From: Convolutriloba macropyga
Taxonomy: Eukaryota
Assembly: GCF_964194025.1 (NCBI RefSeq)
Contig: NC_134474.1
Location: 65,782,001 to 65,846,000 of the forward strand
Direction: 5' to 3'
DNA: 64,000 nucleotides
Shown here: in pieces, positions 2,405 to 19,300 of the stretch
Layout of the letters: each line of letters starts with the position of its first letter
Position numbering within the stretch: the stretch's first letter is position 1
Translations under genes and position numbers: made by a program
The notes under the pieces: generated by a model
Databases searched by the model: none
What the model was told of the DNA's origin: nothing
The model's input: the letters and a program-made list of their open reading frames with translations, nothing else

Positions 2405-2429
2405 AGTAGTAATATAGTGAGCTACACTC

Positions 2430-2460
<31 letters not shown>

Positions 2461-2466
2461 TCCCCC

Positions 2467-2815
2467 ATGTATTAAGATAGGGTATAGCGTATTTTTCGGG
2501 ATTTGGGACCTCCCTAACGTATTAAGATAGGGAATGAATTAGCATGTATTAAGATTAGGTATAGCGGCGTTAATGTATTAAGATAGGGTATAGCCGCCAT
2601 GTATTAAGATTAGTTATAGCCGGCGACATGTATTAAGATTATGCGCCGACATGTATTAAGATAAGTAATAGCCGCCGACATGTAATGAGATTAGTAATAG
2701 CCGCCGACATGTATTAAGATTAGTAATAGCCGCCGACATGTATTGAGATTAGTAATAGCCGCCGACATGTATTAAGATTAGTAATAGCCGCTGCCATGTA
2801 TTAAGAGTAGTATAG
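2467..2815 (+). repeat. Sub-terminal tandem array in the TIR, 12 copies of core GTATTAAGAT; regular 29-bp unit ATGTATTAAGATTAGTAATAGCCGCCGAC (mirrored at ~21157-21505)
   Basis: Core motif at 2469, 2519, 2546, 2575, 2601, 2630, 2653, 2682, 2711, 2740, 2769, 2798; the last six are spaced 29 bp. Confidence 0.93.
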
Positions 2816-3178
2816 TCGGTGCAAATGTGGGGGGTAGGTTCGGAGACGCTCCTGATAGGCTGAAATTTTGAGGGGAAAAAATCAATGTTTGTGTAGTTAT
2901 TAAGTGTTTACTTGAGAACAATAGAATCGGCGTGGGTAATTAATTGCTGTAATTATGTGAGGGGTAATTATGTGACAGGTTGAATTTTGTTTACAACTTT
3001 TATGTTATTAAATTGTGAAATTAATTGGTGGGGGTTTTCAATTACCCTAGTTATCTGAGGGGTAATTATGTGACATGTTGAATTTTTGTTTACAAATTTT
3101 AGGTCAATTGCAAAGATTGTTCCCCTAATTGTTTGAATCAATTGTGTAACAAATGTCTTTTGCGCGCTCATTAATTGG

Positions 3179-3183
3179 AAAAA
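3179..3183 (-). terminator. Putative Pol III terminator (T5) for the tRNA-iMet
   Basis: Minus strand reads ...GCTA TCTTGAC TTTTT; T5 lies 7 nt after the discriminator base and forms the innermost bases of the left TIR. Confidence 0.7.
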
Positions 3184-3190
3184 GTCAAGA

Positions 3191-3262
3191 TAGCAAGAGG
3201 TAGTTTTGATCTACCGTCCTCTGGGTTATGGGCCCAGCGCGCTCCCACTGCGCCATCTTGCT
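3191..3262 (-). tRNA. Initiator tRNA-Met (CAT) gene inside the Polinton
   Basis: Minus strand: AGCAAGA TG GCGC AGTGGGA GCGC G CTGGG CCCATAA CCCAG AGGAC GGTAG ATCAAAA CTACC TCTTGCT A (72 nt). All four stems are Watson-Crick paired. Initiator hallmarks present: A1:U72, three G:C pairs at the bottom of the anticodon stem, C33, A54 and A60, discriminator A73. Confidence 0.95.
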
Positions 3263-3566
3263 AATTACATGCATATATGCATTATTTTTTGTACATTATT
3301 TGAAAAAAGATGTTAAATAAAAGAAAAAAATGAATTAAAATAGTATAAAATGACAGACACAGTACAAATTATGAGCATCAAAATGCAAAATTACTCAATC
3401 ATTTACAATAAATTGTATAAAATTCAATGAACATCAAGGTACACTTAGCCGAGTGGTTAATAAAGTTCGATAAAAAAAGTTTAGAAAACTCACGAGAAAC
3501 AGTTACGAGAAACATATACTATCGACTTTATTAACTTCAGCTTACTAATTACCAAAATGAACACTA

Positions 3567-3965
3567 CTACATATAGTTACTTATAAAATTTAACACGTGT
3601 ACATCATGAATATTGTTCAAGTTGGTTTGGAAAAACTTAAATAGTTGAAATGCTGCAAAAATTGCGTAGAATCCACACAAATTTTGCATCTTCTGAAGTG
3701 GTCGATGTATAATTTTTTGGTACTTTTTACCTAAAAATTTGTAATGTGTTACTGATCGAGCCAGAGAATCCGCATAATAGTAACTTCTGTTGAGTCGAGC
3801 AATCAATATCCAATGTTCACCGACTTCTTTACTCGAAGCAGTGTTAATGATTGCAAAGCTGAATTTGGGTAAATTTGGAATGAAATCTGCTGGAAACGAT
3901 CCAACGTATTTGAATTTTAGCTCAGGAATGCGTTCAATAATTTGTTGAAGAGATTGATTATCCAT
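3567..3965 (-). CDS. Adenain-like (C5 family) cysteine maturation protease
   Basis: 132 aa with His (GEHWILI), Asp (YYADSL) and Gln/Cys (LQKMQNLCGFY) in the order of the Polinton/adenovirus protease. Confidence 0.92.
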   Translation of the reverse strand: MDNQSLQQIIERIPELKFKYVGSFPADFIPNLPKFSFAIINTASSKEVGEHWILIARLNRSYYYADSLARSVTHYKFLGKKYQKIIHRPLQKMQNLCGFYAIFAAFQLFKFFQTNLNNIHDVHVLNFISNYM

Positions 3966-4242
3966 GACAAATAATCTTCTGTTTCAATTCGCAAGCTCCG
4001 TTTGAACAGGGATTTCTCACATTACAATCAAGTTGAAATGATTCGTTCTTTTCAATAAAGCAACAATCTTTAGATTGGGGAATTTTACGTATCAGACCTC
4101 CTGTAGATTCACTTACTCTGTCTTCACTATTGCCTGTGACATCGGGATGAAAGATAATAATGATGATTAAAAGTCCCAGGAATACTGCACAAATAAGGTA
4201 TACATATAAGTTTGGAGTAGGTCTACCCCAATTTTCATCCAT
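3958..4242 (-). CDS. Small single-pass membrane protein with Cys-rich C-terminus, function unknown
   Basis: 94 aa; hydrophobic LYVYLICAVFLGLLIIIIIF; six Cys in the last ~36 aa; overlaps the protease start by 8 nt. Confidence 0.65.
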   Translation of the reverse strand: MDENWGRPTPNLYVYLICAVFLGLLIIIIIFHPDVTGNSEDRVSESTGGLIRKIPQSKDCCFIEKNESFQLDCNVRNPCSNGACELKQKIICHG

Positions 4243-4375
4243 TCCCTATCTTGATATTATAGTGTGGAAAGGGTTGCAACTGGGCGATGAAAGTACATAT
4301 CCAACAAATGTTCCAACGCAGAAGGCAATAATATAAAAACCATAAAAAATTGAGAAGAAAATTAAAAAATCTTGA

Positions 4376-5719
4376 TTAATGCAGAGTTCTTAAGACATTC
4401 TTAGCAACTGTTCCAAACTGATCAATTTTAACTGTTGAGATTCGTTCTCCGAGAACAATTAACTCGGTAACATTGGTTAGCGGACGTTCAAAGAACATTT
4501 CTAAACGAAGACTTTCCCCACTGAGTTCAGGATGATGAACATTTTCACCAGCGTCTTGGAGTGATGTGAGATCGAATACAAGCACATAATGATCTGTGAA
4601 GAAATCATTCGGTAACGCAGGAATTTCTTCGTTGAAGTTCATTGCCTTCATTGTTGTAACATAAGCTCTACAATTGTTGGTTGTATCAATTGAGACAACA
4701 GCTCTCCCCCCTCGAACAATTCTCAGCTCCCGCAGTCCAAACTTTCGATAATGAAAAGGATTTTCTTGAAAATGTCCGGTGAATGCTGAATTAGTGTTCA
4801 TTGCTATTGCAATTCGTCTGATTGGGGCATTATTGAAAACATTTTCCTGAATAAATTGATTTTGTCCAGAAGGAATAATAAATGTTCGCGCAATTGTCTC
4901 CATAAAATTATAGCAAGCTGGTTGATGTGTTAGTTGATACTTGATTGTCTGGTGATAGACCTCATTAACGACAACACGTCTCGTAAAAAGTGAACAGTCA
5001 AGAACTCTAAGGGAAACATGTGGATTGTAGGAAATCATGTAAAAATTTGGTCTCGCTCGAATCAATTTGAGTCTAATTTTTGTATTTGGAAGTAATAATT
5101 TTTAACATTGAAATAAGTCGATTGCAAGTTTACCATATAAGGTGACCCCATCTTTCAACAAAAGCTCTTCTTCCCTATCTATGAACGGACTTTTTTCATA
5201 ATCACTAGGATCTTTCTCAAATTCGTATCCATGACAAGCCAAAATTCCTTCATTATTCATTGTAGAAGCATTGAATTCATTGGATATCAGAGCTTTGTGG
5301 CCATAGAGTCCGTTAGAGTTGTACACTTGTTGATTGTTTAAATACACTTCGCAGTTGGAGAAAAGAGAGTGTAACAAGTTGTTGACATGAGTCAAATATT
5401 GTAAATCATCATCAGTGAAAGTCATACCCATATCTGGTTTTCCATGCTCCTCTTTTTTCATGAAATCGTCAAATAATCTTCCCTTTTGTAATCCAACTTT
5501 AATTTGTAAATGAATATCTCTCATATCGAGATAAATACTTCTATCTGTTTCAAATTCAAATTCAATGCTGCTTTCATCCAATGAAGTGCTGGGATAAACT
5601 TCTTGAATATGGGATGATTCAACTGGTTCCAAAACCGGAATTTTGTCAAAAATCTCCAAGCAAGAATTTGTAAAGTGTCCATAACGGAAATTACTGTCAT
5701 TTGTTGATCTGGTATTCAT
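4376..5719 (-). pseudogene. Major capsid protein (double jelly-roll), one gene interrupted by an in-frame TAA at 5102-5104
   Basis: ORFs 5102-5719 and 4376-5065 are in the same frame (...FQC*KLLLPNTKIRLKLIRARPNFY...), 448 codons in total. Motifs VNNLLHSLFSNCEVYLNN, PIRRIAIAM, ENPFHY and VFDLT match Polinton MCPs. Confidence 0.9.
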
Positions 5720-6072
5720 TTTAGTTTGGTAAAAATATCCCTCCTAGTTCGACGACGTCGACTGATTTTTGGCGAGCGTTTTCGAATAATACGTCGTTTT
5801 CTAGGTTTTCCTCCTCCTAGTTGTTTACGTAAAGTTTTCTTTCCAACATCTGTGGCTGCAGATTTGAACTTTTTCCTTCCAGCTAATACATTTCCGATTT
5901 CTGGCGCAGCTAATTCAATCAAGTCAGCACCAACTCTTTTAGCTGCTGGTACAACATATCGTCTCAAAAAAGGAATTGCAGTTCTCCCAATTGTTTGTGC
6001 TAAAGCTCCAAATCCTCTTCCCCTTTGTCTTGAATAACCACGAAAATACGGTAAATCACTGTCTGCAACCAT
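5716..6072 (-). CDS. Basic virion core / membrane-lytic protein (adintovirus pX/cupiennin-like)
   Basis: QRGRG-FGALAQTIGRTAIPFLRRYVV amphipathic segment, an LGGG adenain-type cleavage motif and an Arg/Lys-rich tail; lies between penton and MCP. Confidence 0.75.
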   Translation of the reverse strand: MVADSDLPYFRGYSRQRGRGFGALAQTIGRTAIPFLRRYVVPAAKRVGADLIELAAPEIGNVLAGRKKFKSAATDVGKKTLRKQLGGGKPRKRRIIRKRSPKISRRRRTRRDIFTKLK

Positions 6073-6089
6073 TTTTTGTAAACTTAATT

Positions 6090-6902
6090 TTAAAAATGAT
6101 TGTCTGAAGCTCTTCTGAACATCAATACAGCTCTTGTTACACCTACTGAATTGAAGGGAACTTTTTCACCGTATGAGTCGCGGAGCTCAAGTTTAATGCT
6201 GTGGAAAGAATTTTTAAGAATTTTTTTAAATTGTAGATTTGGGAAGTTTTGATAATTCATATATTGTCCAGTAGATATTATGTCTCCATTCTTAATTTTA
6301 GAAATAAACGGAATACATCTCAAAAGCGCCGCTTTTGTATCACCTACAATATTGTATTCAACAATATCGCTGTATATCATGAGAGTATGAATTCGAACAA
6401 TATCATAGGGAAATTTAGGAAAATGTGGTCCAGCACCACTCATAAAAACACCCATTCCGTAAACAGCTTCCTCACACCCAAATACGTGACAGAGATCAGT
6501 ACTGAAGATAACTAGTAACGAGTTTTCATTAGGAAGGCTTAGGGATATTCGCTGTGTAATTCTGTTGACTTTTAATTTGATTGGGGTTTTCTCATACTTT
6601 TCTCTTTCCTGAATTTGTTTGTTCATTTCGTTCACAATATCAGATATTGATGGATATAGTCCTGCATCAATTGCATAATAATCGGAAGGTTTTGTATCTG
6701 GAGTTGCAGCATCTAGATAGAAAAATTTTCCATCTGTAATATTCTGGTACAAAGATGGATATGATAGTTCGGTTATTGCCACCTCCCATTCTCCTTCAAG
6801 GTTAATCTGTTCGGGAAGGAAATTGGTAAAAGAACTCAATGTATTATTTGGATAACAATCAAAGGATGCGTTGGAAACCAGCTCTACCGTAAAAGAGTTC
6901 AT
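6090..6902 (-). CDS. Minor capsid protein (penton, single jelly-roll)
   Basis: N-terminus FTVELVSNAS..YPNNTLSSFTNFLPEQINLEGEWEVAITELSYP and C-terminal IYSDIVEYNIVGDTKAALLR match Polinton mCP. Probable ATG at 6902, just after the integrase stop. Confidence 0.88.
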   Translation of the reverse strand: MNSFTVELVSNASFDCYPNNTLSSFTNFLPEQINLEGEWEVAITELSYPSLYQNITDGKFFYLDAATPDTKPSDYYAIDAGLYPSISDIVNEMNKQIQEREKYEKTPIKLKVNRITQRISLSLPNENSLLVIFSTDLCHVFGCEEAVYGMGVFMSGAGPHFPKFPYDIVRIHTLMIYSDIVEYNIVGDTKAALLRCIPFISKIKNGDIISTGQYMNYQNFPNLQFKKILKNSFHSIKLELRDSYGEKVPFNSVGVTRAVLMFRRASDNHF

Positions 6903-6904
6903 CA

Positions 6905-7847
6905 CTAAATGATACACTTTGAGAGCTCTTGTTCATAAAATTTTCCTAGTATTTCATCACCCTGCTCTCCCTTGAGGTTGTATGTTGGAGGTTTGTACGT
7001 AGCAATCTTAACAATTTCAAAGATTTCACTCGTGAACTGTGACTTGTATCCTTTTCTAAAAGGAATATCGTATTTCGAAATTCGTACTTTATCCCCTACT
7101 TTAAACCGAGGTTTTTTGTATTGTCTGATCGGATTTTTGTAAAAAATTGATAAAAAGTCTTTGTTTTTTTACCTCTTTTGGAGCTTTACCTGTAGATCTA
7201 TTTACTCTACTATTCATTGTATTTAGGAAAGATCCCATTTTTACAAGGTACTTATGCCCGTTTTCTTCCATGAAGCGATAAATAATGTTTTTCAAAGATC
7301 TGATAGCTCTCTCAGCTACGGCAGCTTTTGTTTCACTTCTCGTTGAATAAATTTTAATTTTCTTTTCTCCACAAAATTTCCGAAATTCGCCACCAAACTC
7401 TGTTCCTTGATCAACCCATACTTTTTGTGGGATGTTGTTTTTTCGTAGCATTTTTTTGAAAGCTGCTACAGCATCTGTAGAATGCTTTGATTTCATTGGT
7501 TGAACACGGACAGAACGAGAAAATACATCAACGCAGATTAATAGATACTTTACTCCGTTATTAAACTCTGACAATTTGTCCATAAAAGCTAAATCAAGAC
7601 ACCAAATTTCATTTATCCGCTTTGCAAATGCAGGTAATCGTCTAAAATGTCGATTTGCTTGACGGTATTTTGTATAGGAATTTTTAGTGTGGAGAAAGGA
7701 AATAACCTTGCCTCTTGATAAACCGCTCGCTTTTTGAAGATTTCTAACCGATCCAAATGCAGCTTTTCCTTCTTTGTATAATCGTTGAAGTTTCGCTTTT
7801 TCAGATTTTGAAAGGGATCCAACTCCCTCTGTCTTTGCTTTTGGCAT
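6905..7847 (-). pseudogene. Retroviral-like (rve) DDE integrase with a +1 frameshift in the A7 run at 7164-7170
   Basis: D (CLDLAFMD), D (WVDQGTEF), E (VAERAIRSLK). Removing one A restores the C-terminal domain KPRFKVGDKVRISK...FRKGYKSQFTSEIFEI...GKFYEQELSKCII* ending at 6905. No chromodomain seen. Confidence 0.92.
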
Positions 7848-8208
7848 CCTTGTTTACAATTTTGCTCGGACTTATCCCTGTAGCATCAAGTATTGTGTAA
7901 TATATATCAGGAAACGCAATATTTTTTCTCTTCAATGCGTAAATAAAATCGGTAAACGCTACATTTGTATCTCTTCCATCCAGTAAAATGGAGTCACTGA
8001 GGGACAGCTTGATTCGAGGACATTTGAGTATTTGATCTACAACTTACTCGTTTTTGAATGATTTTGTGTTAGTGGTGATGTCCTTGTGAAGAGAATCTAA
8101 ATTTTGTGGAACGAAGTTAACTTTTTCCTCACTCTCGTCCAATTTATACACATGTAATTTGAATTTTTGTTCTTAAAGCTGTTGAGGAATCAAAACAAAC
8201 TGTTCCGT
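7801..8208 (-). pseudogene. Decayed Polinton gene between the ATPase block and integrase (136 codons), absent from the ORF track
   Basis: Frame reads (ACG)EQFVLIPQQL*EQKFKLH...FKNE*VVDQILKCPRIKLSLSDSILLDGRDT...DRGSWIPFKI*. Start codon appears mutated to ACG; in-frame TAA at 8173-8175 and 8044-8046. Exactly fills the gap between its neighbours. Confidence 0.72.
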
Positions 8209-8209
8209 T

Positions 8210-8515
8210 TCAAGAAAGACGGTTAATGATAGACGGAGTTAGAATTGATATAAGTTCTATTCCTTTCCTTGAACTTAAAATTGCTCTCCTTTTATTTATT
8301 CCAGTTCTTTTTAGAATAAGCTGATGAATTTCGTCTTGATACTTTTTTACGTCTCGTTTTTGAATATCTTGCAGTTCTCCTCTGAGCATGTTTACGATGC
8401 ACTCGTTTAGGAACTGAATAAATTCTTTCGGACAATTTTTTAGGTAAGTTCTTTTGAAGTTCCGGGAATAACTTTGGAACGTTGTCAGAGTAGAGAGATG
8501 TTGTGTGCTCATCAC
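8210..8515 (-). CDS. Conserved small basic Polinton protein overlapping the ATPase 3' end
   Basis: FIQFLNECIVNMLRG...KRRAIL pattern resembles the small ORF that typically follows the Polinton ATPase; overlaps it by 224 nt in another frame. Confidence 0.7.
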   Translation of the reverse strand: MMSTQHLSTLTTFQSYSRNFKRTYLKNCPKEFIQFLNECIVNMLRGELQDIQKRDVKKYQDEIHQLILKRTGINKRRAILSSRKGIELISILTPSIINRLS

Positions 8516-9167
8516 TCAAAAATGTGGTCTGCTGTTTATGTTGTGGAAGGAAAAAAATTGAAGGAATCGATCCACTATTTGTACAAAATCGAAGAGAGTC
8601 GACTGTTTTGGGAGTTAAATCAATAAGTAAATGACCATAAGGAATAGAAGTTGCTTTGGTATACCAATCTTTTAATTGTGAACCTAATCCCAACTGTTGG
8701 CTCAGAGTGTTTATTTGCAGTACATCTCTAGGAGATTTGAACAAGACGATATGAGTATTTTGTAACTCTATATCTCTTCCTAATCTACTCTGATGAAATA
8801 AATTGTGTTTGATGTATATTGTGCTGAGTCCTTTATGTCTTCCAGCTGTTGCAATTTTAACGAAATCTTTAGAGCTGGAAATCTCCTCACAAGAGTCGTC
8901 AAAAATTAACAGATACTTTGTTCCGTTATTTGGGAGGTTTTGACTAAACTCAAAGTCAACTCCTTCTATGAACTCAATATTTTTAACATCTTTAGACATT
9001 AAACCATAAAGAGATTGATAATGTTGATAGAAGTAGTAAATTTTGTCGAACTCTGGTTGAAAAGTTCCAATTGTTAACCATTCATGTATAAGATGAGATT
9101 TCCCAGATCCGCTTGGACCAACCAATGAAATAAAAATTCGTTCTTTTGTGGAAATTATCTTGTTCAT
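8292..9167 (-). CDS. FtsK/HerA (A32-like) genome-packaging ATPase
   Basis: Walker A GPSGSGKS, Walker B LLIFDD, arginine-finger region TAGRH, and HIVLFKSPRD. Confidence 0.95.
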   Translation of the reverse strand: MNKIISTKERIFISLVGPSGSGKSHLIHEWLTIGTFQPEFDKIYYFYQHYQSLYGLMSKDVKNIEFIEGVDFEFSQNLPNNGTKYLLIFDDSCEEISSSKDFVKIATAGRHKGLSTIYIKHNLFHQSRLGRDIELQNTHIVLFKSPRDVLQINTLSQQLGLGSQLKDWYTKATSIPYGHLLIDLTPKTVDSLRFCTNSGSIPSIFFLPQHKQQTTFLSDEHTTSLYSDNVPKLFPELQKNLPKKLSERIYSVPKRVHRKHAQRRTARYSKTRRKKVSRRNSSAYSKKNWNK

Positions 9168-9427
9168 AAATTAGGTGAAGGTAAAATATAACCAACTGTA
9201 CTAGAAAGGATTGCAATCCAAACTGTTGTTTCTTCACACGTTGTAGCCAATGTTATTCGTACTATACAACAGACCAGAATTACGAGTATAACAAAAAATT
9301 GGGACAGAAAAACGACTAGAGACCTATTACAAGTCTGTCCAAAACATTTCCATGATTGTCGTTCCTGATTATTATCATCAAAGACAAAATTACCCAAATT
9401 TAATCCTTTATCTGTATGCTCAGTCAT
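9164..9427 (-). CDS. Small two-TM membrane protein
   Basis: 87 aa; two hydrophobic helices joined by TCEET; ATGA overlap with the ATPase start. Confidence 0.75.
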   Translation of the reverse strand: MTEHTDKGLNLGNFVFDDNNQERQSWKCFGQTCNRSLVVFLSQFFVILVILVCCIVRITLATTCEETTVWIAILSSTVGYILPSPNL

Positions 9428-9712
9428 TTAAACGTAATCATTGAGACGATAGAGAAAATGTTTCAACTGAATTGTGATGTAAATATATAAAAAAATGAGA
9501 TAAGCTTCTAAACATAAAAAAGAAACAAACAACAGCGACAGCCAAAACACTGTCTCTTCACAGGAATTAATAACAGAAAGCATAAAAAAGGAGAATAAAT
9601 TCAAAATTAAGAAAAACGACAGAATTGAAATGAAGAATAACTGTGTAACGCTAGGACAAAATTTGTTCAACTTTCTCATTTTTGAAGCAACTTTTCTATG
9701 TTTTGTAGGCAA
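9428..9712 (-). CDS. Small two-TM membrane protein, probable paralog of 9164-9427 (first ATG at 9679)
   Basis: TQLFFISILSFFLIL...SCEETVFWLSLL parallels SQFFVILVILV...TCEETTVWIAIL; its stop directly abuts the next ATG. Confidence 0.6.
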   Translation of the reverse strand: MPTKHRKVASKMRKLNKFCPSVTQLFFISILSFFLILNLFSFFMLSVINSCEETVFWLSLLFVSFLCLEAYLIFLYIYITIQLKHFLYRLNDYV

Positions 9713-9787
9713 AAAAATGATTTTAAAAATTAATTAAAAGACAATATGATACATTACAATCAAAGTATATAAAAATTTTTACAAATA

Positions 9788-10255
9788 TTAAATTTTGTCA
9801 AAAAAATTAAGAACCCAAGTTCCATAAGCATAAGCTTTCTTCTCTGCACAGTGCAATGTTTTCTTGTGTCGGTAGGGGTAGTTACTACATTCCCAGATTG
9901 TATCTTCGTTGGAAATCAACTTAGAGGCTTTTGGACATCCAAAATCGTCCAAATTTTCCACATCCTTTCACAAATAATTGGATAGGATTTTACATTTCTC
10001 CAATCCTTTGGCAAAGTATTCGGTTGTAGGAGAACAATGTTTGATGAATTATGGTTGGAAGATCTGAGTAATCAACTTTTCCATTATTCCAGTTTATTCC
10101 ATGTAAATTCTTTGTGTCCACTTTGCTTGAAATGTTGGCTTGTAGTCATTCGGTGGGAGGAATGTATATCCTAACACAATTCCGTCCTTGAAAATTCCCA
10201 GCTCCTTGACAACTGTTCCCTCCAAGCACTCAATATCAAACACAACGAGAGTCAT
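9788..10255 (-). pseudogene. DEDD/DnaQ-exonuclease-like accessory gene with a 1-nt deletion (~10115) and an in-frame TGA (9968-9970)
   Basis: Reconstructed: MTLVVFDIECLEGTVVKELGIF...KW/TKNLHGINWNNGKVDYSDL...FAKGLEKCKIL...ENLDDFGCP...LHCAEKKAY. N-terminal hhhDxE motif plus HGI motif. The fold assignment is inference. Confidence 0.65.
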
Positions 10256-10286
10256 CCTCTTTTTAGCTGAGATAATTGACAAATGA

Positions 10287-10691
10287 TTAACAATCTAGTA
10301 TTTTAAAAATATGAGGATGACAAACTTTGATGTAGAGACAAAAGAATAATCCAGTTATATGACCTAGAAGACAGGAGCTGGGTAATTGCGGCAGCATGTA
10401 ACAATAACCTGGTCCTTCGTCTGTTGTTGTTTTCACAGCTCCAGCAGAATCATGTAAAATTGCATGTAGACGAAAAATTTTTGATCTAGCTAAGAAAAAG
10501 TCCAAAAGAGAGTTTCCATATCCAATTCTTCCTCCGTGAGGAAACTTTTGATCAATTTCGTCCAAATCGACATTTCGGTCCCAAATTTTACACGCTGCGA
10601 GAAAACAGTTTTTACGTTTTTCGTTCGTAGGGAACATTGAAAGTATGCTTCCGTAACAATTGAAAATGTTTACCAGAGTAACAATATTCAT
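10287..10691 (-). CDS. Accessory protein, possibly phospholipase A2-like (HD motif)
   Basis: GGRIGYGNS followed by HAILHDSAG resembles the GxGN loop and HD dyad of viral PLA2s. Likely ATG at 10691 overlaps the upstream stop (TAATG). Confidence 0.5.
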   Translation of the reverse strand: MNIVTLVNIFNCYGSILSMFPTNEKRKNCFLAACKIWDRNVDLDEIDQKFPHGGRIGYGNSLLDFFLARSKIFRLHAILHDSAGAVKTTTDEGPGYCYMLPQLPSSCLLGHITGLFFCLYIKVCHPHIFKILDC

Positions 10692-11098
10692 TAACTCTGA
10701 GTTGTTTCGTCCAAAATAATGCAAGTCTTTTTGTAATTTTCTATATAGGAAAGAAGTGTTGGTAGATGATCTACTAGATTTTTATACTCCTCTTTTTTCA
10801 AATCAATCTTTGTAAGAAAACTCCACTGATATCCGTTCCAGCGATGTTGAGAAATGGAAATTTCTTGTTTGTCGGAACGATATGTTAGAGTTGTTCTGCG
10901 CAGCCCATTATGAATAACCCACTTGAATTCAGAAATTTGGGACTCTACGTCTAAATTATCCAAATTGGGAAAATTTTGCGCTTCAAGAACTGTATATGAA
11001 TACCTTTTAAGCTCGTGATGTAACCTGACGTGAAAAACTTTTGATTTATCTCTGAGACTTAAGAAAATGTTTCTAGAGCATCCAATATCCCAACTCAT
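10691..11098 (-). CDS. Accessory protein, possibly PC4/whirly-like
   Basis: 135 aa; C-terminal beta-strands followed by IDLKKEEYKNLVDHL resemble the PC4 helix motif. Confidence 0.55.
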   Translation of the reverse strand: MSWDIGCSRNIFLSLRDKSKVFHVRLHHELKRYSYTVLEAQNFPNLDNLDVESQISEFKWVIHNGLRRTTLTYRSDKQEISISQHRWNGYQWSFLTKIDLKKEEYKNLVDHLPTLLSYIENYKKTCIILDETTQS

Positions 11099-11211
11099 TC
11101 TAAGAAGAAAAAAGTTTCAAATGAAAAAATGTTTACTGAAAGTCAAATACATATAATCACCAAATATTCATCATTCAATATAAAAAACATCATAATATTG
11201 CGCAGCAGTAG

Positions 11212-11811
11212 TTATTGAAATGTACATTGTTCAATATTAGAGAAGTCTTTAAGATTTTCAATGAGTTCCTTGAATTCTTCCATTTTATAGCTGACGTAAG
11301 TCACTTGCTTGAACTCATTGCTCTCTTTGCGACAAAATAGTCGGATCTGGACATAAACTGAAGCTGGATTGTCCTGAACGTACTGTATAAAGGTAACGTA
11401 GAGTCTTCGATTTTTTCCAATGCTGATCTCTCTTGCTTTGTGACATTGTTGCAGCACGTCTTCCATTTTTGGGTTCTTCTCAAATTGAGCTGGATTTTCT
11501 CGAATTTCCCAGTCTCCATTCAGCAGATCGTTCTTCAGAAGACAAAATTTCTTGAATTCGTAATCTCCAATTCTCAGTTGTTGGTACTTTTCAAATGTTC
11601 CACGTCTATCTTTTTTAAAGACTTGAAAAGTTGGTTCCGAGTAATTTTGTCCATTTCTAAATATTTGGGACACAGTAAATCTCCCAAATCTGTTTGGATG
11701 AGAACCAAAGTCAATATAAAATGGGACGGAATCAGTACCCAATTTAGGTTGTGAATCTGTAAACATTGATGGAGCGCTCGAGTAACAAGGAGATACTTTG
11801 GAGAGAGACAT
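11212..11811 (-). CDS. Accessory protein with two PC4-like (ssDNA-binding/coactivator) repeats
   Basis: SIGKNRRLYVT...VYVQIRLF...VSYKMEEFKELIENL aligns by eye with the PC4 core; a similar unit occupies the N-terminal half. Confidence 0.6.
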   Translation of the reverse strand: MSLSKVSPCYSSAPSMFTDSQPKLGTDSVPFYIDFGSHPNRFGRFTVSQIFRNGQNYSEPTFQVFKKDRRGTFEKYQQLRIGDYEFKKFCLLKNDLLNGDWEIRENPAQFEKNPKMEDVLQQCHKAREISIGKNRRLYVTFIQYVQDNPASVYVQIRLFCRKESNEFKQVTYVSYKMEEFKELIENLKDFSNIEQCTFQ

Positions 11812-11928
11812 TTACGTAACTTGAGTAAGCTGCGAGAAGTTGATTAAATGATTTGCTTAAAAAATTAAGGGCCTCTACAACGCAGAATTTCCTTTTATGC
11901 TAACGACATCATTGTTTTCGCACAATTT

Positions 11929-12310
11929 CCTAAAAAGGAAGAGAAAAATGTGTCTATTTAGAATTCTTCCTTAAAAGGATTTCTAATCAGAAATTTTCAA
12001 TAAAGAAAACTTTTGAATCATTATAGAAAAAGAGTCTTTGTGTTTAGCACGTCTGTGTTGCATTAGAGAGAAGTAGTGACGAAAATATTTTGAACAAGTA
12101 AAACATCGAAATTTATTAATCCGCTGTTTCTGGAATTGATTCATAGTTCAAATGAGATTTTATATTGCACATAACAATTTCATTAGTTTCCTTATTTGGA
12201 ATTTGAATTCCTTTATAATTTATAAGTTGATTTCCTTATTTGGAATTTGGTTTTATTTATAATAAATAAATTAGTTTCCTTATTTGGAATTTAAGTTCAA
12301 ATAAGGAAAT
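11929..12310. promoter_or_regulatory. Cluster of CArG boxes (CC[A/T]6GG) in a divergent promoter region
   Basis: CCTAAAAAGG at 11929, CCTTAAAAGG at 11969, CCTTATTTGG at 12190, 12234 and 12278 (44-bp spacing), plus an inverted partial copy at ~12298-12310. Confidence 0.6.
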
Positions 12311-12341
12311 CAATTTCTTTAGAACTAAATAATATTACAGA

Positions 12342-12938
12342 ATGGCAGCAGTTATGTGTCAGGTTTTACCACACTTTTACAAAAAATTCTGTGAAAAGGC
12401 GTTGTTTATATCTGTATCTGTCAAAGATTATAGACCATATATTCTTACAAGTGAATATGTTGTTGCTTCACACAACAGTTTCTGTCCCCTGAAAACCTGT
12501 CGATATCACATTGTTCTCATTTCTTTCTCCATCGGAGACTTGCTTCAAAAACTGGAAGATCTCTCCTATTTATATCAGACAGTTGATTGTTTATATACAT
12601 TATATAAACATCAATTTTTTGGCAATATTTTGGAAGAATCGGGACTTGTCTTTACTCAGTTAGACAGAGCAGTACAACACAATTATGAGAACAAATATGT
12701 TGAGAAGTTACCTAGTGTGTCTAAAAAAAGATTGAGTAGAAAGAAGTTCAAGAGACATCTACTGCGCGCTGAACAAAGAAATGTAAGCACACAAACAATG
12801 GGATCTTCTTTTCTGGACAGAATTCAATCTCTTAAAAACTCAAAATATGAGGGTGAATTGATAAAAATTGTTGACTGTTTGTTAGACGGCCATGGCTTAA
12901 TTGATAATTCTCTGTTATATCTTGAAATTAGAAAGTAA
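12342..12938 (+). CDS. Accessory protein of unknown function
   Basis: 198-aa ATG-initiated ORF followed by AATAAA; basic patch KKRLSRKKFKRH and motif RNVSTQT. Confidence 0.7.
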   Translation: MAAVMCQVLPHFYKKFCEKALFISVSVKDYRPYILTSEYVVASHNSFCPLKTCRYHIVLISFSIGDLLQKLEDLSYLYQTVDCLYTLYKHQFFGNILEESGLVFTQLDRAVQHNYENKYVEKLPSVSKKRLSRKKFKRHLLRAEQRNVSTQTMGSSFLDRIQSLKNSKYEGELIKIVDCLLDGHGLIDNSLLYLEIRK

Positions 12939-13067
12939 TAAATTTGTAATTGCATCACAATTATTTACATAGTATCAGTTTTATGTTTGGTTTAAAAATC
13001 AAGAAAATTCAATTTCTCTTTTTTTACAATCTTTTTCTTAAATGTTTAAATTGATACCTCTAATCTG

Positions 13068-13516
13068 TTAAATGTCAAGTTTTGTAACAAATTATTCTTT
13101 TAAAAGTCGAGTTTTCTTACAAAAATTTTTGTTAACTGTTGGGTTTTGGAACAATTTATTTTAATAAAAGTCGAGTTTTCTCAACGAAATTTTTGTTAAA
13201 TGTCGAGTTTTCATTCAATCTTTTTGTTTAAATATCAAAAAACAGTTTCCAATTGGATACAATAAAGCGCAAATTTTTTCCTGATTTTCACCAGTTTACG
13301 GTATAATTTAACGCAAAAAAGGAAGAGATTTTTAATTTGTAAAATGACAAGTTTTCTTTTTCTATAACAACTTAAAAATCGAGTTTTCATACAGGTTTTT
13401 TTCTTAGAAATCAAATTTCTGCTCAGTTTTTTTTCTTAAATATCAAATTTTTGATCAAAAACTTTTGTTAAATGTCGAGTTTTGATAATGCTATTTCCGT
13501 TAAATATCAAGTTTTG
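13068..13516 (+). repeat. Degenerate 32-bp-period array (core TTAAATGTCGAGTTTT), two blocks of six
   Basis: Cores at 13068, 13100, 13132, 13164, 13196, 13228 and at 13340, 13372, 13404, 13436, 13468, 13500. Confidence 0.85.
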
Positions 13517-13709
13517 TAACGAAGTTTCAAAATTCAAAATTTTGTTTGATTATATCCTTGTGAACTGGTTTAGAAAAGAAAGCTCACATGAGAAAAATTA
13601 TATTATAAAGAATGTTTAAATACATCACCAGGAAAATGTATAAATCAACATACAACTTTTCCGTTAAGAACGATTACAAATGAAGCCGCAAAATTGTACC
13701 AACTCGAAT

Positions 13710-14432
13710 CTATTCAAACAGAGTTCTCACAACATACTCTGGTAAGTTTTGAATCTCATTCCCAAAAGGTCTAGAACGTTCAAATATTACTGGAGGATCA
13801 GTTGGTTGAACGCTGATTGAAGTTGTTGAATTTTCATCAGTCAGCAAAATTGGATTGTGCGCCGTTCCATCCTCTATGGAAGGTGTTGTCATTGATGGAG
13901 TAGTCGACATATCAGTAGAACCATAGTACTGTGCCGGATCAAAGTTCTGCTGTTCATTTGCTGTCCAAGTGCTAATATCAACACTTAGCTCGCTCCCATC
14001 AAAGCTTGACACAGTTTGAAGCAAATTCCCTGACTCCTCCACTGAACTCAAAACTTGATTTACATCCGGGCTAGAGAACCAAGAGTTGGGAATTTGCCCT
14101 TCTTCCCAAGGGAAAGTATATTGAATGTTGCCAGCGACGTAGGTAGGTGGAAATTCTGTCCCAGCAACGTGGGGATAGTGGTGCCCACTAATAACAGCAA
14201 CCTCGTGTCCCATCGCTTGAGTTCCAAGCTGATTCTCCGTAATTGGAACCTGACCCTGATGATAGGTGTCGAACTGTTGTCGCTGGTGTTCAATAATATG
14301 CCACACAGTGATGGGTAAAGTCATTACAGTCTCATATAATCCGTTTGATAAGTCTTTAATACTTATCCGAGCAGTCTCCTCAGTGAAGGAAAATGAGTAC
14401 AGAAGACTGTTGTTTTGCAGAGTAAACTCCAT
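13710..14432 (-). CDS. Acidic Ser/Thr/Pro-rich accessory protein (probable ATG at 14432)
   Basis: Long ORF in an AT-rich context; acidic, likely disordered C-terminal two-thirds containing NPILLTDE. Confidence 0.7.
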   Translation of the reverse strand: MEFTLQNNSLLYSFSFTEETARISIKDLSNGLYETVMTLPITVWHIIEHQRQQFDTYHQGQVPITENQLGTQAMGHEVAVISGHHYPHVAGTEFPPTYVAGNIQYTFPWEEGQIPNSWFSSPDVNQVLSSVEESGNLLQTVSSFDGSELSVDISTWTANEQQNFDPAQYYGSTDMSTTPSMTTPSIEDGTAHNPILLTDENSTTSISVQPTDPPVIFERSRPFGNEIQNLPEYVVRTLFE

Positions 14433-14968
14433 TTTGTTCAGATGAGTTGATAGAAGTGGATTTTTTAGAAACAAAAGCAGTTTGTAAATGAACGTATTGA
14501 AAACTGTCAAGTAGAGAGTAAGTTAGAAAACAACAAATTTCACTTTATAGTAGGACAAAAAGAATATCTAAGTTAGAAACAGATAAACGTTACAACTGAA
14601 GTAAGATCTGTAGATAAGAAGAATGTGAATGTAGGAACTCAATTGTATAAAGTTTTGAAGAATAGTTAGCAGGACGATGAGGAACAGAGGTGAAATTAAT
14701 TTTGAAGAAATGAAAGAGAATGATGAAATCTAACTTTGTCGCTCCTATTTATAGTGAATTCCGTCCAATAAGAACAAAGTAACCAAAGAAGGAAATATTT
14801 TGTAGAAAAACTGACGTTAGTAACCGAAACAGGAAATTGAAATCATTTAATGTATCCGAATATGGAAGAAGTTGTTATAAAATGATGCTCGTATACGAAG
14901 CAGGAACATCAATGCGTGAATAGAAACCAAATATGGTTTTTGAATAATACATGTATCACATGATACGA

Positions 14969-15586
14969 CTACTTGTTTACTAAATAAGGATAGCTCATTG
15001 GGAACGAAGTGACATAATTTACCAAAAATGTTAAGCTCTGATAAATTTGTTCAACTTCGTTAAATTTTAAATCAATCTCGGAAAGTATTCCATTTTTGGA
15101 ACAGAACTTTTGCATATATATATTTGGGAGCCGAATTCCAAATCGAATTTTTACTCCTTCAGAATTGTAATCTGTATAATAATGAAAAAACAACGCGCTT
15201 TGTACAGATGAAGTGATTGCTATGGGGTCAGGAATTGGAATACAGTTCGCTTGTGCTAGATTTCTGTACTGTTCTAAAATTTCGGGAACAGAATTCAAAA
15301 TAAATAAAATTTCGTACTTGTTAATGTGTAGCTCTGACGATAAATCAAATGATTGTTTCGTTATATAATCATCATATTTGAATTTTTTAATGGAAAATGT
15401 TGCATATTCGAATCCTTTACTAAATCGGATTATTCTGTCATTTTGAACGCAAATGTCCAAGAAATTGTAGAAAAAATAGGAATCAACATCAATCTCGTCA
15501 ACTTTGTAAGCATCGGCAATTCCTTCTTTCCTCTTATATATTTTTTCCAACAACTGTAAATGATTTTTGATTAACATTTTTCGCAA
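14969..15586 (-). CDS. Accessory protein, possibly two divergent PC4-like repeats
   Basis: Two units of beta-strands plus helix: FSIKKF...LHINKYEILFILNSV and IYMQKF...IDLKFNEVEQIYQSL. Confidence 0.55.
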   Translation of the reverse strand: MRKMLIKNHLQLLEKIYKRKEGIADAYKVDEIDVDSYFFYNFLDICVQNDRIIRFSKGFEYATFSIKKFKYDDYITKQSFDLSSELHINKYEILFILNSVPEILEQYRNLAQANCIPIPDPIAITSSVQSALFFHYYTDYNSEGVKIRFGIRLPNIYMQKFCSKNGILSEIDLKFNEVEQIYQSLTFLVNYVTSFPMSYPYLVNK

Positions 15587-15813
15587 ATGAGCAAAATTTC
15601 ACGCAATACTCTGTTTATGTAAAAGAAAATTAAAATTAAGAAACAATTACACAAAATAAAATCGTTAATCTTCAGAAAAATTTCTTTAACACGCGATTTC
15701 GATTGTTTGAGAGGTTCCAAGACAATAACGTTAAGTTGTAAAGTAAATATTTGTTCGTGAAGTATGGATGAATATTTGTTTTCGACATCTTTAACATTGT
15801 TGTAAAAGCACAT
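15571..15813 (-). CDS. Small hypothetical protein
   Basis: 80-aa ATG ORF tightly overlapping the next gene; hydrophobic C-terminus; no recognisable motif. Confidence 0.35.
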   Translation of the reverse strand: MCFYNNVKDVENKYSSILHEQIFTLQLNVIVLEPLKQSKSRVKEIFLKINDFILCNCFLILIFFYINRVLREILLICEKC

Positions 15814-16194
15814 TCATGTGCTAATTTCAATTTTCAATAGGACTAGATTTGTTTGCAAGCACCGAATTCTGTCAATTGCGGATAGACACAAATTTGAATC
15901 ACAGAGTTTGTTAAGATTGGAACAATTTGTTTGAATTTGTTGTGAGTCTGTTTTTGGATTATGGCTGGATGAAATATGAAAACTTATATAAAATGTAAAA
16001 GAAATGATTAAGAAGATATATAAGAATGATTTGCTATTTTTGAGTTTACTCCAAGGAATGAATTCACATATTTAAAAAGAGTGTTCTTAATTATTAAAGG
16101 TATTTGTAAATGGAAGAATCTGATTGGTTTATTCATTATGTTCTAGAATGTTCGGTTATGACAACAAGCTTCTTAAAATGGAAATGATAAATTT

Positions 16195-16216
16195 CCATAT
16201 ATGGAGTGATGCGTCA
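16195..16216 (+). promoter_or_regulatory. CArG box plus CRE/AP-1-like site upstream of pPolB
   Basis: CCATATATGG-AGTGA-TGCGTCA, ending ~110 bp before the pPolB ATG at 16328. Confidence 0.5.
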
Positions 16217-16327
16217 TAGCTGCGTTCCCTAAATGTACAAAAATAATTTCTTTCATTCTCACTTTGTTATTGTCACAATTAGTTGCTCGTCACAATACCC
16301 GAATTTGTTTCATCTTGTACCAAAACA

Positions 16328-19300
16328 ATGCCTTCTCTCGATAGAAGTCTCCCAGTGAAATGCACAAAGTGCAACAAAATGGTGGTGAAGAAGAATATGG
16401 CAAGACACAAGCAGTCTTGTGATAGTGGGACTCTATTTTGTCCCAAATGTCCACATTTCAGTACAAAGAAGAAAGAAGACATGAATTACCACATTGGTAA
16501 GCATCACGCTCCTAAGGATACAAAGCTAAGCACTATGTGTACTGTATGCTTGGAGGAGTTTCCGAGTTTCTATTCTCTTCAACAACACAAGAGGAGAAAG
16601 CATGGAACTTCAACAAAAGTTGGAACAAAATCGAGTGAAAAGCTTAAAGAAGTTCTAGAATCAGAGGAGCTGGAAAAGGACAACGAGCAGCTACAACAAG
16701 AACTTAGTGCTTGCCAGCACTTTTTTGACGACACTGAGATGGAAAATGGAAGACATCAAGTGTTCAACTTCAAGCTGTCCAAGCTCGATCCTCATGAAAT
16801 TAATAAAAAGTTGAAAGAAGTATTCGAAAAACTCAACTGTGCAGCCAAAGTCAACTTAGCTCTAGGATTTATATAAAGAAATGTGGATACGGACGAGTAT
16901 CGATACTTCTACGCTCACGAGAACAACACTTTCTTCGAGAAATCTCATCTACTCTGTTCCAAAGGAGACTTAGTCTCTCTTCAGGACAGGATTGAAAAGA
17001 TGGATTTAGTGGAGACGTGTGCTCAGGAGCGGGAGAATACAAAATGGCGATTTGCTCTGACTACAAATGTAACAATATTTTGCGCTCTCCTAAAATCCAT
17101 TCCAATGGGATGTATCGATGCTGTTCTTCCTGAACAGTTACTCAGACGACCAGATGTGAATTGTCTCGTATCGAATGGCTATGGTGAGACTTACAAAGAT
17201 TATCTTTGCTTATTCCGAGCTATAGCTGTTCACTTATATGGATCATCGGAGCTTGAGATCAATGCAAAAAATTTGTTTAGTGTATTCCTCCACGAATCTG
17301 GACAAGACGCAATCAATTTCAGAGGGGTATCGATCGATCATCTTGTATTTGTTGAAAATGCGATAAAGCACAACATATTTATTTACGATATTGACATTGT
17401 AGATGGAGATTTTGTTGGTGAACTTGCGAGGAGAAGTATTGAAATGTATGAGAAAAATATTAATTTATTACGTTACAACAACCACATATGCTATGTAGAT
17501 GATATCAACACATTCTTTAAACGATTCCGTTGTCCCAGTTGCGATACGTTCATTCAGAAAGCGGGAAATTTCAACCGCCATGTTAAAACGTGTAAAGATA
17601 GAGTACAGCATATTTACCCAAAGAGTGTGTATACATTGCGCGAGACCTTATTTGATAAGCTTGACGGCTTTGGAATTTCCTACAACGAAGATCAAAAATT
17701 GTTCAAGAACTTGGCTATTTTTGACTTTGAATCGATATGTGTACCCTCCGACCAATTAAAAGATACAAACACAACCACTTGGATTGGAAAGCATGAACCA
17801 ATCTCTGTCTCTATTTCCTCCAATTTAATTGATGAACCTGTCTTCCTATGCGATAAAGATCCGAAAGCTCTCATTATATCTTTTGTTGAAGCTATTGAAG
17901 ACTTAGCAAACAAAAGTAAAACTGAAATGTGGACAAAGTTTTCCTCTATTGAAGCAGTAATCAGAGCACGAGTTAACGCAATTGGTGAAAATTTAATTAA
18001 AAGAAAAGATCAAAACGCTTCAACATTTGAGTGTGAAGATGAACGTACCGAAGATGATGAAGCTGATATGTCTACGCAATTTCTCCAAATGCAGAAAAAC
18101 CAGCTTTTGGACTTACAGCAGCACTTTGAGCGTTATGTGAACACTTTACCTGTGTTCGGATTCAATAGTGGAAAATATGATTTAAATCTCATTAAGTCCT
18201 ATCTCCTACCCTATCTTATTCATGAGCGCGACATTCAACCTACTGTTATTAAAAAAGCAAATCACTTTGTTTCTCTTAAGTTTGGTGATGTAAAATTTCT
18301 CGATATCCTCAACTTTCTCGGTGGAGCTACATCACTTGATTCTTTCCTTAAAGCATACAAGACAAATGAGACCAAAGGATTCTTCCCCTATGAGTGGTTT
18401 GACTCTCCCGAAAAGCTCGATGCAACTTTTCTCCCTCCTTACGACCGTTTCTTTAGCAAACTGAGAAACTATAATCCACTGGAGAAGGAATTTACTGATT
18501 TCACTAAATTGCTTAACAGTGGATTTTCTCAACAAGAGTCATTAAAAAAGTTGAGGTTGAAAAATGTTCCTCCATCTGGAATTGACAATTACAATTACCT
18601 GAAAGTGGTCTGGGAGCAAGAAAAAATGGCTACATTCAGAGATTTTGTCAAGTGGTACAACAACAAGGATGTTGTTCCAACACTGGAGGCAATGCAAAAA
18701 ATGATGGAGTTTTATCACAACAAGGGCATCGATATGTTAAAACTCGGATGTACACTTCCGAACTTGGCTAATATCTGTCTTCACAAGTCAACAAACCACA
18801 AGTTTTTTCCATTTGTTGAAGCTGACAAAGATTTACATGACAAAATACGTGAGGATATGACTGGTGGTCCATCTATTGTTTTTACTAGAAAAGCAGTAGT
18901 TGATCAGACCTTCATACGAAACTCTGAAAACCTTTGCAAGTCTATCGTAGGTATTGACGCTAGCCAACTCTATCCTTTTTCAATGTGTCAAGAAATGCCC
19001 ACTGGACTTTACACTCGATGGGAATTTGATACAGATTCTCAAAAATTCAGGGCTCGAACAAACAGATGTCGAACATTTGATAACATGGTTATGTCATATC
19101 TTCAATCACAACGTTCCGAATGTAAAATTGAGAGCTACTACACAACCGGAAAACAGAAGAAGATTGATTGTTTTAGCGTAGACGGATTTTGCACACATTG
19201 TAATACGGTGTTTGAAGCCATGGGTTGTTACTTTCATTTCTGTCCTTGTCAGGAAGCTAAAGCAAGTCTCTCGGAAGAGGAAACACAGAGAGGGATTAGA

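Follow-up and report, generated by a model that had tools for sequence, protein, structure and literature searches.

What switches on an integrated Maverick? Particles of animal Mavericks have not been seen and activation by giant viruses has been proposed, according to the available text of PMC8097293. The window analysed here, 64,000 nucleotides of Convolutriloba macropyga (NC_134474.1, positions 65,782,001 to 65,846,000; host assembly, 1.18 Gb), holds a Maverick with a cluster of CC(A/T)6GG words. These words have the form of the CArG box, the binding site of serum response factor (SRF), and they raise the question of whether host SRF reads the promoters of the element.

The element (Table 1) is a Maverick/Polinton. 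It has long terminal inverted repeats (TIRs), AGT ends, a 6-bp target-site duplication (TSD; CACACC), an integrase (rve match in Pfam, E 3e-12), an A32-type ATPase (Pox_A32 match above the cut-off) and a C5-type protease (Peptidase_C5, E 0.0014, a weak match below the cut-off). The capsid-type ORFs lie at the expected place and have no match in Pfam; their labels are assumed from gene order. The family-B label of the polymerase is likewise assumed, from motifs characteristic of family B in a 1227-aa ORF for which Pfam gave no polymerase match. The window copy is defective, with the major-capsid-type gene and the zinc-finger/polymerase gene each in two pieces. A DEDD-like nuclease gene fragment at 10094-10255 (minus strand) is also broken in this copy, and 29-bp tandem repeats (2543-2812 and 21160-21429, ~9.6 copies) occur inside the TIRs, together with a long G run. 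Copies of the family are many and young: of 508 candidates, 40 were scored, and each of these is 99-100% identical over 601 bases. The element resembles the animal Mavericks and adintoviruses, as far as these are described in the available text of PMC8097293 and PMC8502044, in size, TIRs, AGT termini, 6-bp TSD, integrase and A32 ATPase, and also in its adenain-like protease and its putative family-B polymerase, the latter assigned here by motifs.

The initial annotation reported five perfect boxes in a divergent promoter of the element, further perfect boxes at 14927 and 16195, and near-matches at 14783 and 14856. All of these were located. The five lie at 11929, 11969, 12190, 12234 and 12278, and the last three fall in the 44-bp units described for them, a tandem repeat of 2.7 copies with 78% matches. 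Boxes with one mismatch at 11891, 12297 and 16172 had been overlooked, as had perfect boxes within coding sequence at 11463, 11739 and 15090. The excess over chance that had been roughly estimated persists against a composition-matched background: 11812-12341 holds five perfect boxes where 0.03 are expected (0/2000 dinucleotide shuffles), and three where 0.01 are expected when two of the three repeat copies are removed (0/2000 dinucleotide shuffles). When A/T spacers of 2-10 bases were tested in this interval only length 6 occurred, and none of three other C/G dyads was found there. The element as a whole holds 11 perfect boxes versus 1.3 expected (0/200 shuffles), and 44.6 kb of flank holds 7 versus 3.8 (17/200). 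The boxes are confined to the accessory/replication block apart from a single coding box to its left (2405-11211); none lies to its right (16328-21563). They are positioned within 80-500 bp of start codons. A TATA-like word is present at 14745, and some boxes overlap such words (11891, 14745).

The interval 11929-12310 had been presented as one divergent promoter. Alignment of the sister subfamilies exposed a conserved micro-gene at 11983-12144. The interval is not a single promoter, because this gene sits between the boxes at 11969 and 12190, and the boxes at 11929 and 11969, with the one-mismatch box at 11891, are therefore upstream of gene A. A divergent gap does exist, between the micro-gene and gene B (12145-12341). 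P1 to P4 (Table 1), the four short gaps in which boxes lie, are putative RNA polymerase II promoters.

Table 1. Features of the Maverick and of its accessory/polymerase block. Coordinates are those of the window.
Feature	Coordinates	Strand	Description
Maverick/Polinton	2405..21563		19,159 bp; AGTAGT termini; ~780-bp identical terminal inverted repeats
Structural/late block	3567..11098	-	Protease, capsid-type ORFs, integrase, ATPase, small ORFs; single perfect box 5133, coding
Gene A	11212..11811	-	199 aa; predicted tandem PUR/PC4/Whirly-type single-stranded nucleic-acid-binding fold
P1, putative promoter of gene A	11812..11982	-	Boxes 11891 (one mismatch), 11929, 11969
C2H2 zinc-finger micro-gene	11983..12144	-	53 aa; single finger; conserved
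P2, putative promoter	12145..12341		197-bp divergent gap, micro-gene/gene B; boxes 12190, 12234, 12278; inverted one-mismatch box 12297
Gene B	12342..12938	+	198 aa; homologues in distant Mavericks, 28-34% identity
Gene C	13710..14432	-	240 aa; C-terminal half acidic, S/T-rich
P3, putative promoter of gene C	14433..14968	-	Boxes 14783 and 14856 (one mismatch each), 14927; TATA/MEF2-like CTATTTATAG 14745; CCAAT 14765; TGACGT 14812
Gene D	14969..15577	-	202 aa; perfect box 15090 inside coding sequence
Two small conserved ORFs	15571..15813, 15814..16071	-	80 aa and ~85 aa; narrow non-coding gap before polymerase
P4, putative promoter of zinc-finger/polymerase gene	16072..16327		Boxes 16172 (one mismatch), 16195 (perfect); TGCGTCA 16210
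Zinc-finger N-terminal part and family-B DNA polymerase (assumed label)	16328..20683	+	Two ORFs in window copy

The product of gene A is predicted to be a PUR/PC4-fold single-stranded-DNA-binding protein; its AlphaFold model has a pLDDT of 68.9, and the best Foldseek matches of the model are to Pur-alpha (E 2e-4). Strand-helix patterns like that of gene A were noticed by eye in the ORFs at 10691-11098, 13710-14432 and 14969-15577, and the Maverick may carry several PC4/PUR-like genes, gene A alone having been folded and the others judged by eye. All three subfamily representatives keep the reading frame of the micro-gene open. When the window is compared with subfamily C, the differences in this gene are 15/6/19 by codon position and synonymous codons number 13/50; the zf-C2H2 matches in Pfam are weak and below the cut-off. 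The N-terminus of the micro-protein is basic, and at its C-terminus lies a hydrophobic pattern that we take to resemble a nuclear export signal. Gene B has no match in Pfam or the Atlas and a poor predicted structure (pLDDT 51.6), and an Atlas search with gene C gave no match. Genes B and C converge, and a degenerate 32-bp tandem repeat (13064-13530) lies between their 3' ends. A Pfam scan of 19 element ORFs showed neither a MADS nor a TBP domain.

Conservation was assessed in two sister subfamilies, B and C, which were reached via diverged proteins (amino-acid identity ~83% and ~78%, respectively) and whose measured non-coding identity is 58-60%. A search of the same genome returned these three subfamilies only; a distant query reached other families. 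Conservation in related elements, on which the regulatory reading had been made to depend, was found: when seven positions are taken from the window as reference, subfamilies B and C carry a box of no more than one mismatch in 14/14 cases (one shifted by one base), where identity of 58-60% predicts retention of ~0.5/7 per subfamily, or ~1/14 in total. In one copy of each subfamily, the gaps that include the putative promoters contain 7, 6 and 4 perfect boxes versus 0.05, 0.04 and 0.08 expected (0/500 shuffles each), and the control gaps of the same three copies contain 0, 0 and 0. Pairwise identity is 80/84 at the CC/GG positions and 89/126 in the core, with A/T kept at 120/126 core positions. 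The spacing of the P3 boxes is 71-73 bp in all three subfamilies. The spacing of the P1 boxes is 38/40 bp in the window and in B and 28/30 bp in C, a change that is, to judge from these distances, two deletions of one helical turn (10 bp each). Helical phasing has been taken as a sign of function (PMC2200674, in its available text). The first P1 box is present in 12/12 subfamily B loci and the second in 9/12, and at least one P1 box is kept in 9/12 C-type loci, most of which are degraded. All five boxes are present in 28/29 other young copies examined. Substitutions affect 1/580 CC/GG sites versus 21/3480 other G/C sites in the 29 young copies, counts too few to show selection. The CArG boxes are real and conserved, and probably a cis-regulatory feature.

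Not every box shares in this conservation. The 44-bp triplet is private to the window subfamily, with one near-match in B and near-matches only in C, and appears to have arisen when an older weak site was recently amplified in place. It was rejected as a conserved core, since it is the least conserved part. The in-frame boxes at 11463 and 11739 were rejected as functional because they too are private to the window subfamily. The box at 15090 in gene D is kept in all three subfamilies, and its retention may be codon-driven.

Other promoter words accompany the boxes. TGACGT in P3 is invariant across the three subfamilies, and in P1 of subfamily C CRE words alternate with the boxes. The order in P4 is MEF2-type word, CRE-like word, box and AP-1-like heptamer, and the heptamer follows the box in all three subfamilies; the MEF2-type word is CTAAAAATAG at the 16172 position of B and C, where the window has CTTAAAATGG. 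CRE half-sites are enriched in C (6 versus 1.2 expected, 0/500 shuffles), weakly so in B (20/500) and not in the window (50/500). Strict MEF2 words were matched in 1/500 shuffles in B and in C. AP-1 words are not enriched in any of the three subfamilies by shuffling of the promoter-containing gaps, and GGAA (ETS) counts, which the flanks of the boxes themselves inflate, show no enrichment in subfamily C.

The host encodes the machinery that such promoters would use. Two exons are best matched by human SRF (E 3e-10 and 1e-15), and the host protein retains human SRF's N-terminal extension and its recognition helix; within the helix, the host protein has N where human SRF has T. The host also encodes MEF2 and an MRTF-like gene (RPEL and SAP), which was found with a looser RPEL search; a stricter one returned a Phactr-like gene alone. 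Jun-, CREB- and Fos-like bZIPs were recognized by eye. Two further bZIP matches on small contigs (L137, L139) look, by eye, unlike animal bZIPs; a symbiont present in the assembly may be their source.

Among seven actin-type loci examined, a perfect box lies 195-236 bp upstream of the ATG in three of the four conventional actins (0.04 expected, 0/2000 shuffles) and in none of the three divergent loci. The flank xT(A/T)CC occurs at 21/30 element half-sites, 5/6 actin half-sites and 4/28 background half-sites, the element half-sites not being independent in this test because the three subfamilies form one clade. TTACC/GGTAA-type flanks were seen at the proximal CArG of three host actin loci (L149, L150, L148), which suggests that host SRF prefers yeast/plant-like flanks. 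At the jun, SRF and MEF2 loci and at three fos-like loci, the 2.9 kb upstream of the anchor hold no perfect box, 5' ends having been located for some of these loci. The host genes that share the box are actins and not the immediate-early loci examined, which makes a cytoskeletal/muscle SRF-MRTF programme as good a fit as one set off by wounding.

The initial annotation proposed that the accessory and replication genes of the element may be wired to host SRF. Enrichment, conservation and the presence of SRF, MEF2 and MRTF-like genes in the host speak for this proposal; the low conservation of the triplet and the identity of the host genes sharing the box, which are actins, speak against parts of it. 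On balance host SRF probably controls the early genes of the element via the CArG boxes. At each early promoter, two or three spaced boxes would be occupied by host SRF dimers, which would bring in MRTF or a partner under MAPK control. Together with bZIP and MEF2 factors, SRF would turn on transcription of the genes for DNA binding and the polymerase, so that the single-stranded-DNA-binding protein, the zinc-finger micro-protein, the accessory genes and the DNA polymerase would be switched on early. Adjoining CRE/AP-1 and MEF2-type sites would make the output signal-responsive, and transcription of the structural block would come later, along a different route. If SRF is in control, the chance that the element is inducible by injury, growth or mechanical input would be about even or slightly better.

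It is very improbable that the boxes are functionless words that arose by chance in AT-rich DNA and were multiplied by tandem duplication. The enrichment persists after duplicates are removed (3 versus 0.01), retention is 14/14 where about one is expected, and the control gaps lack boxes; the control gaps and the retention largely refute the chance explanation, even though a repeat gave rise to three of the five boxes, two in-frame boxes (11463, 11739) are private to the window subfamily and the substitution counts among the 29 young copies are too low to show selection. Reading of the boxes by another factor is unlikely. The candidates would be host MEF2, TBP (of the host or encoded by another Polinton) and an autoregulating dimer encoded by the element (gene B or the zinc-finger micro-protein), and they draw on the MEF2-type word that replaces one box in B and C, on the TATA-like words inside some boxes and on the failure of genes B and C to match the Atlas and of gene B to match Pfam. 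Such a reader would have to accommodate the strict CC-6-GG symmetry with its free A/T core, non-TATA cores included, the same word with the same flanks at host actin promoters, and the lack of a MADS or TBP match in the element ORFs scanned. MEF2 prefers CTA(A/T)4TAG, which counts against it.

The boxes could also bind SRF and give steady muscle or cytoskeletal expression via MRTF instead of an injury burst. This explanation, which is nested within SRF control, is quite possible, though short of probable. It agrees with a box and flanks common to the actins and not to the immediate-early genes examined, with the several spaced boxes per promoter accompanied by MEF2-type sites, and with the MRTF-like gene of the host. 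The alternation of CRE sites with boxes in subfamily C is less expected under steady expression, and so is P4, where the AP-1/CRE-like heptamer that follows the box in three subfamilies reproduces the layout found in the serum response element (SRE) of c-fos: box, 5-bp gap and an identical TGCGTCA (window 16195-16216), as seen in the c-fos primers of PMC1796876 in its available text. The candidate CRE/AP-1 partner sites would be a further likeness to the c-fos SRE (SRF review PMC7925694, available text). The differences are that the window boxes lack a convincing ETS site, with GGAA words that mostly overlap the box, and that the host fos-like loci examined have no proximal box. Also at odds with steady expression are the Maverick loci of Hydra, which according to the available text of PMC13465017 are among many transposable elements that peak early in regeneration and cluster with Jun, Fos and CREB.

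Other Maverick families reside in the same genome (loci L108-L115 and L118-L127). Ten further loci from this genome comprise one of subfamily C and nine of families D (two), E (two) and G-type (five). A single box in the homologous gap was found in two of the nine (family E), a box at an ORF edge in one, and none in six. By counts of words made without shuffles, the homologous gap of family D (two loci) has four E-boxes, mostly TCACGTGA, and no perfect CArG box; that of family E (two loci) has one CArG box, three CCAAT boxes and CRE-like sites; and G-type loci combine three CCAAT boxes with CRE words, E-boxes and a MEF2-like word, with a perfect box at the ORF edge in 1/5. A metagenome scan yielded ten Maverick loci, of which six were scanned, and the homologous gap was present in L102 only (941-1205). 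There the same divergent gene pair flanks a gap that has three CCAAT boxes plus one E-box and lacks a CArG box. Viral contigs, searched with a single protein and by alignment, gave no relative. CArG wiring was rejected as a general Maverick trait, since the distant families mostly carry CCAAT or E-boxes. We tentatively suggest, while holding it rather doubtful, that co-resident families split the host regulatory space, one clade using SRF and others E-box or CCAAT factors, and that the SRF clade is a wound- or mechanics-triggered provirus in which SRF, MEF2 and CRE/AP-1 switch on the DNA-binding and polymerase genes. If true, an injury or remodelling trigger would account for the burst of young copies, given that the host is an animal with adult stem cells.

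Promoters of the element type are not described in the available text of PMC8097293 and PMC8502044, in which a term search found 'promoter' 2 and 0 times, respectively. The former proposes activation by giant viruses, whereas the promoters in the window look like host polymerase II promoters. The Mavirus provirophage cited in the same source is an integrated relative in which, as proposed here, a promoter decides what wakes it; its trigger is a co-infecting giant virus, whereas the candidate trigger of the window Maverick is a host transcription factor. In available text, HTLV-1 is described as having SRF sites in an intragenic enhancer and its LTR (PMC9065021) and avian retroviral LTRs as having a CArG box (PMC7601775). 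These retroviruses, like the present element as read from its sequence, are integrated viruses with host SRF sites. Their sites number one or two and lie in an LTR or enhancer, whereas the DNA element in the window has boxes repeated at four separate putative promoters of internal genes. No report of CArG boxes or SRF sites in Mavericks was found in the literature searched.

SRF control would give the first testable handle on what wakes dormant Mavericks. A conserved host-factor grammar names a concrete activation input, SRF with MRTF or MAPK partners, and this input predicts when and where early transcripts of the element appear. Many young copies would, by implication, scatter SRF-responsive enhancers through the genome. 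The differing grammar of the co-resident families suggests that reading promoters could be a general way to infer Maverick lifestyles. Elsewhere in the window, the interval 26213-26956 (minus strand) contains a host SAM-dependent methyltransferase ORF, and 61263-63739 contains ORFs that we take to be the gag-protease of a BEL/Pao-like LTR retrotransposon, with a weak aspartyl protease match in Pfam.

The partially available literature offers further context on host inputs. SRF cofactors are reviewed in PMC7925694 and PMC12103072; PMC9341512 and bioRxiv 2023.12.05.570175, in their available text, add nothing on SRF. The injury response of Hydra is led by CRE sites, and SRF is unmentioned in the available text of its description (PMC8049744). 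In Hofstenia, muscle is an injury-signalling tissue (PMC13046036, available text), and Polintons are de-silenced during planarian differentiation (PMC8532177, available text).
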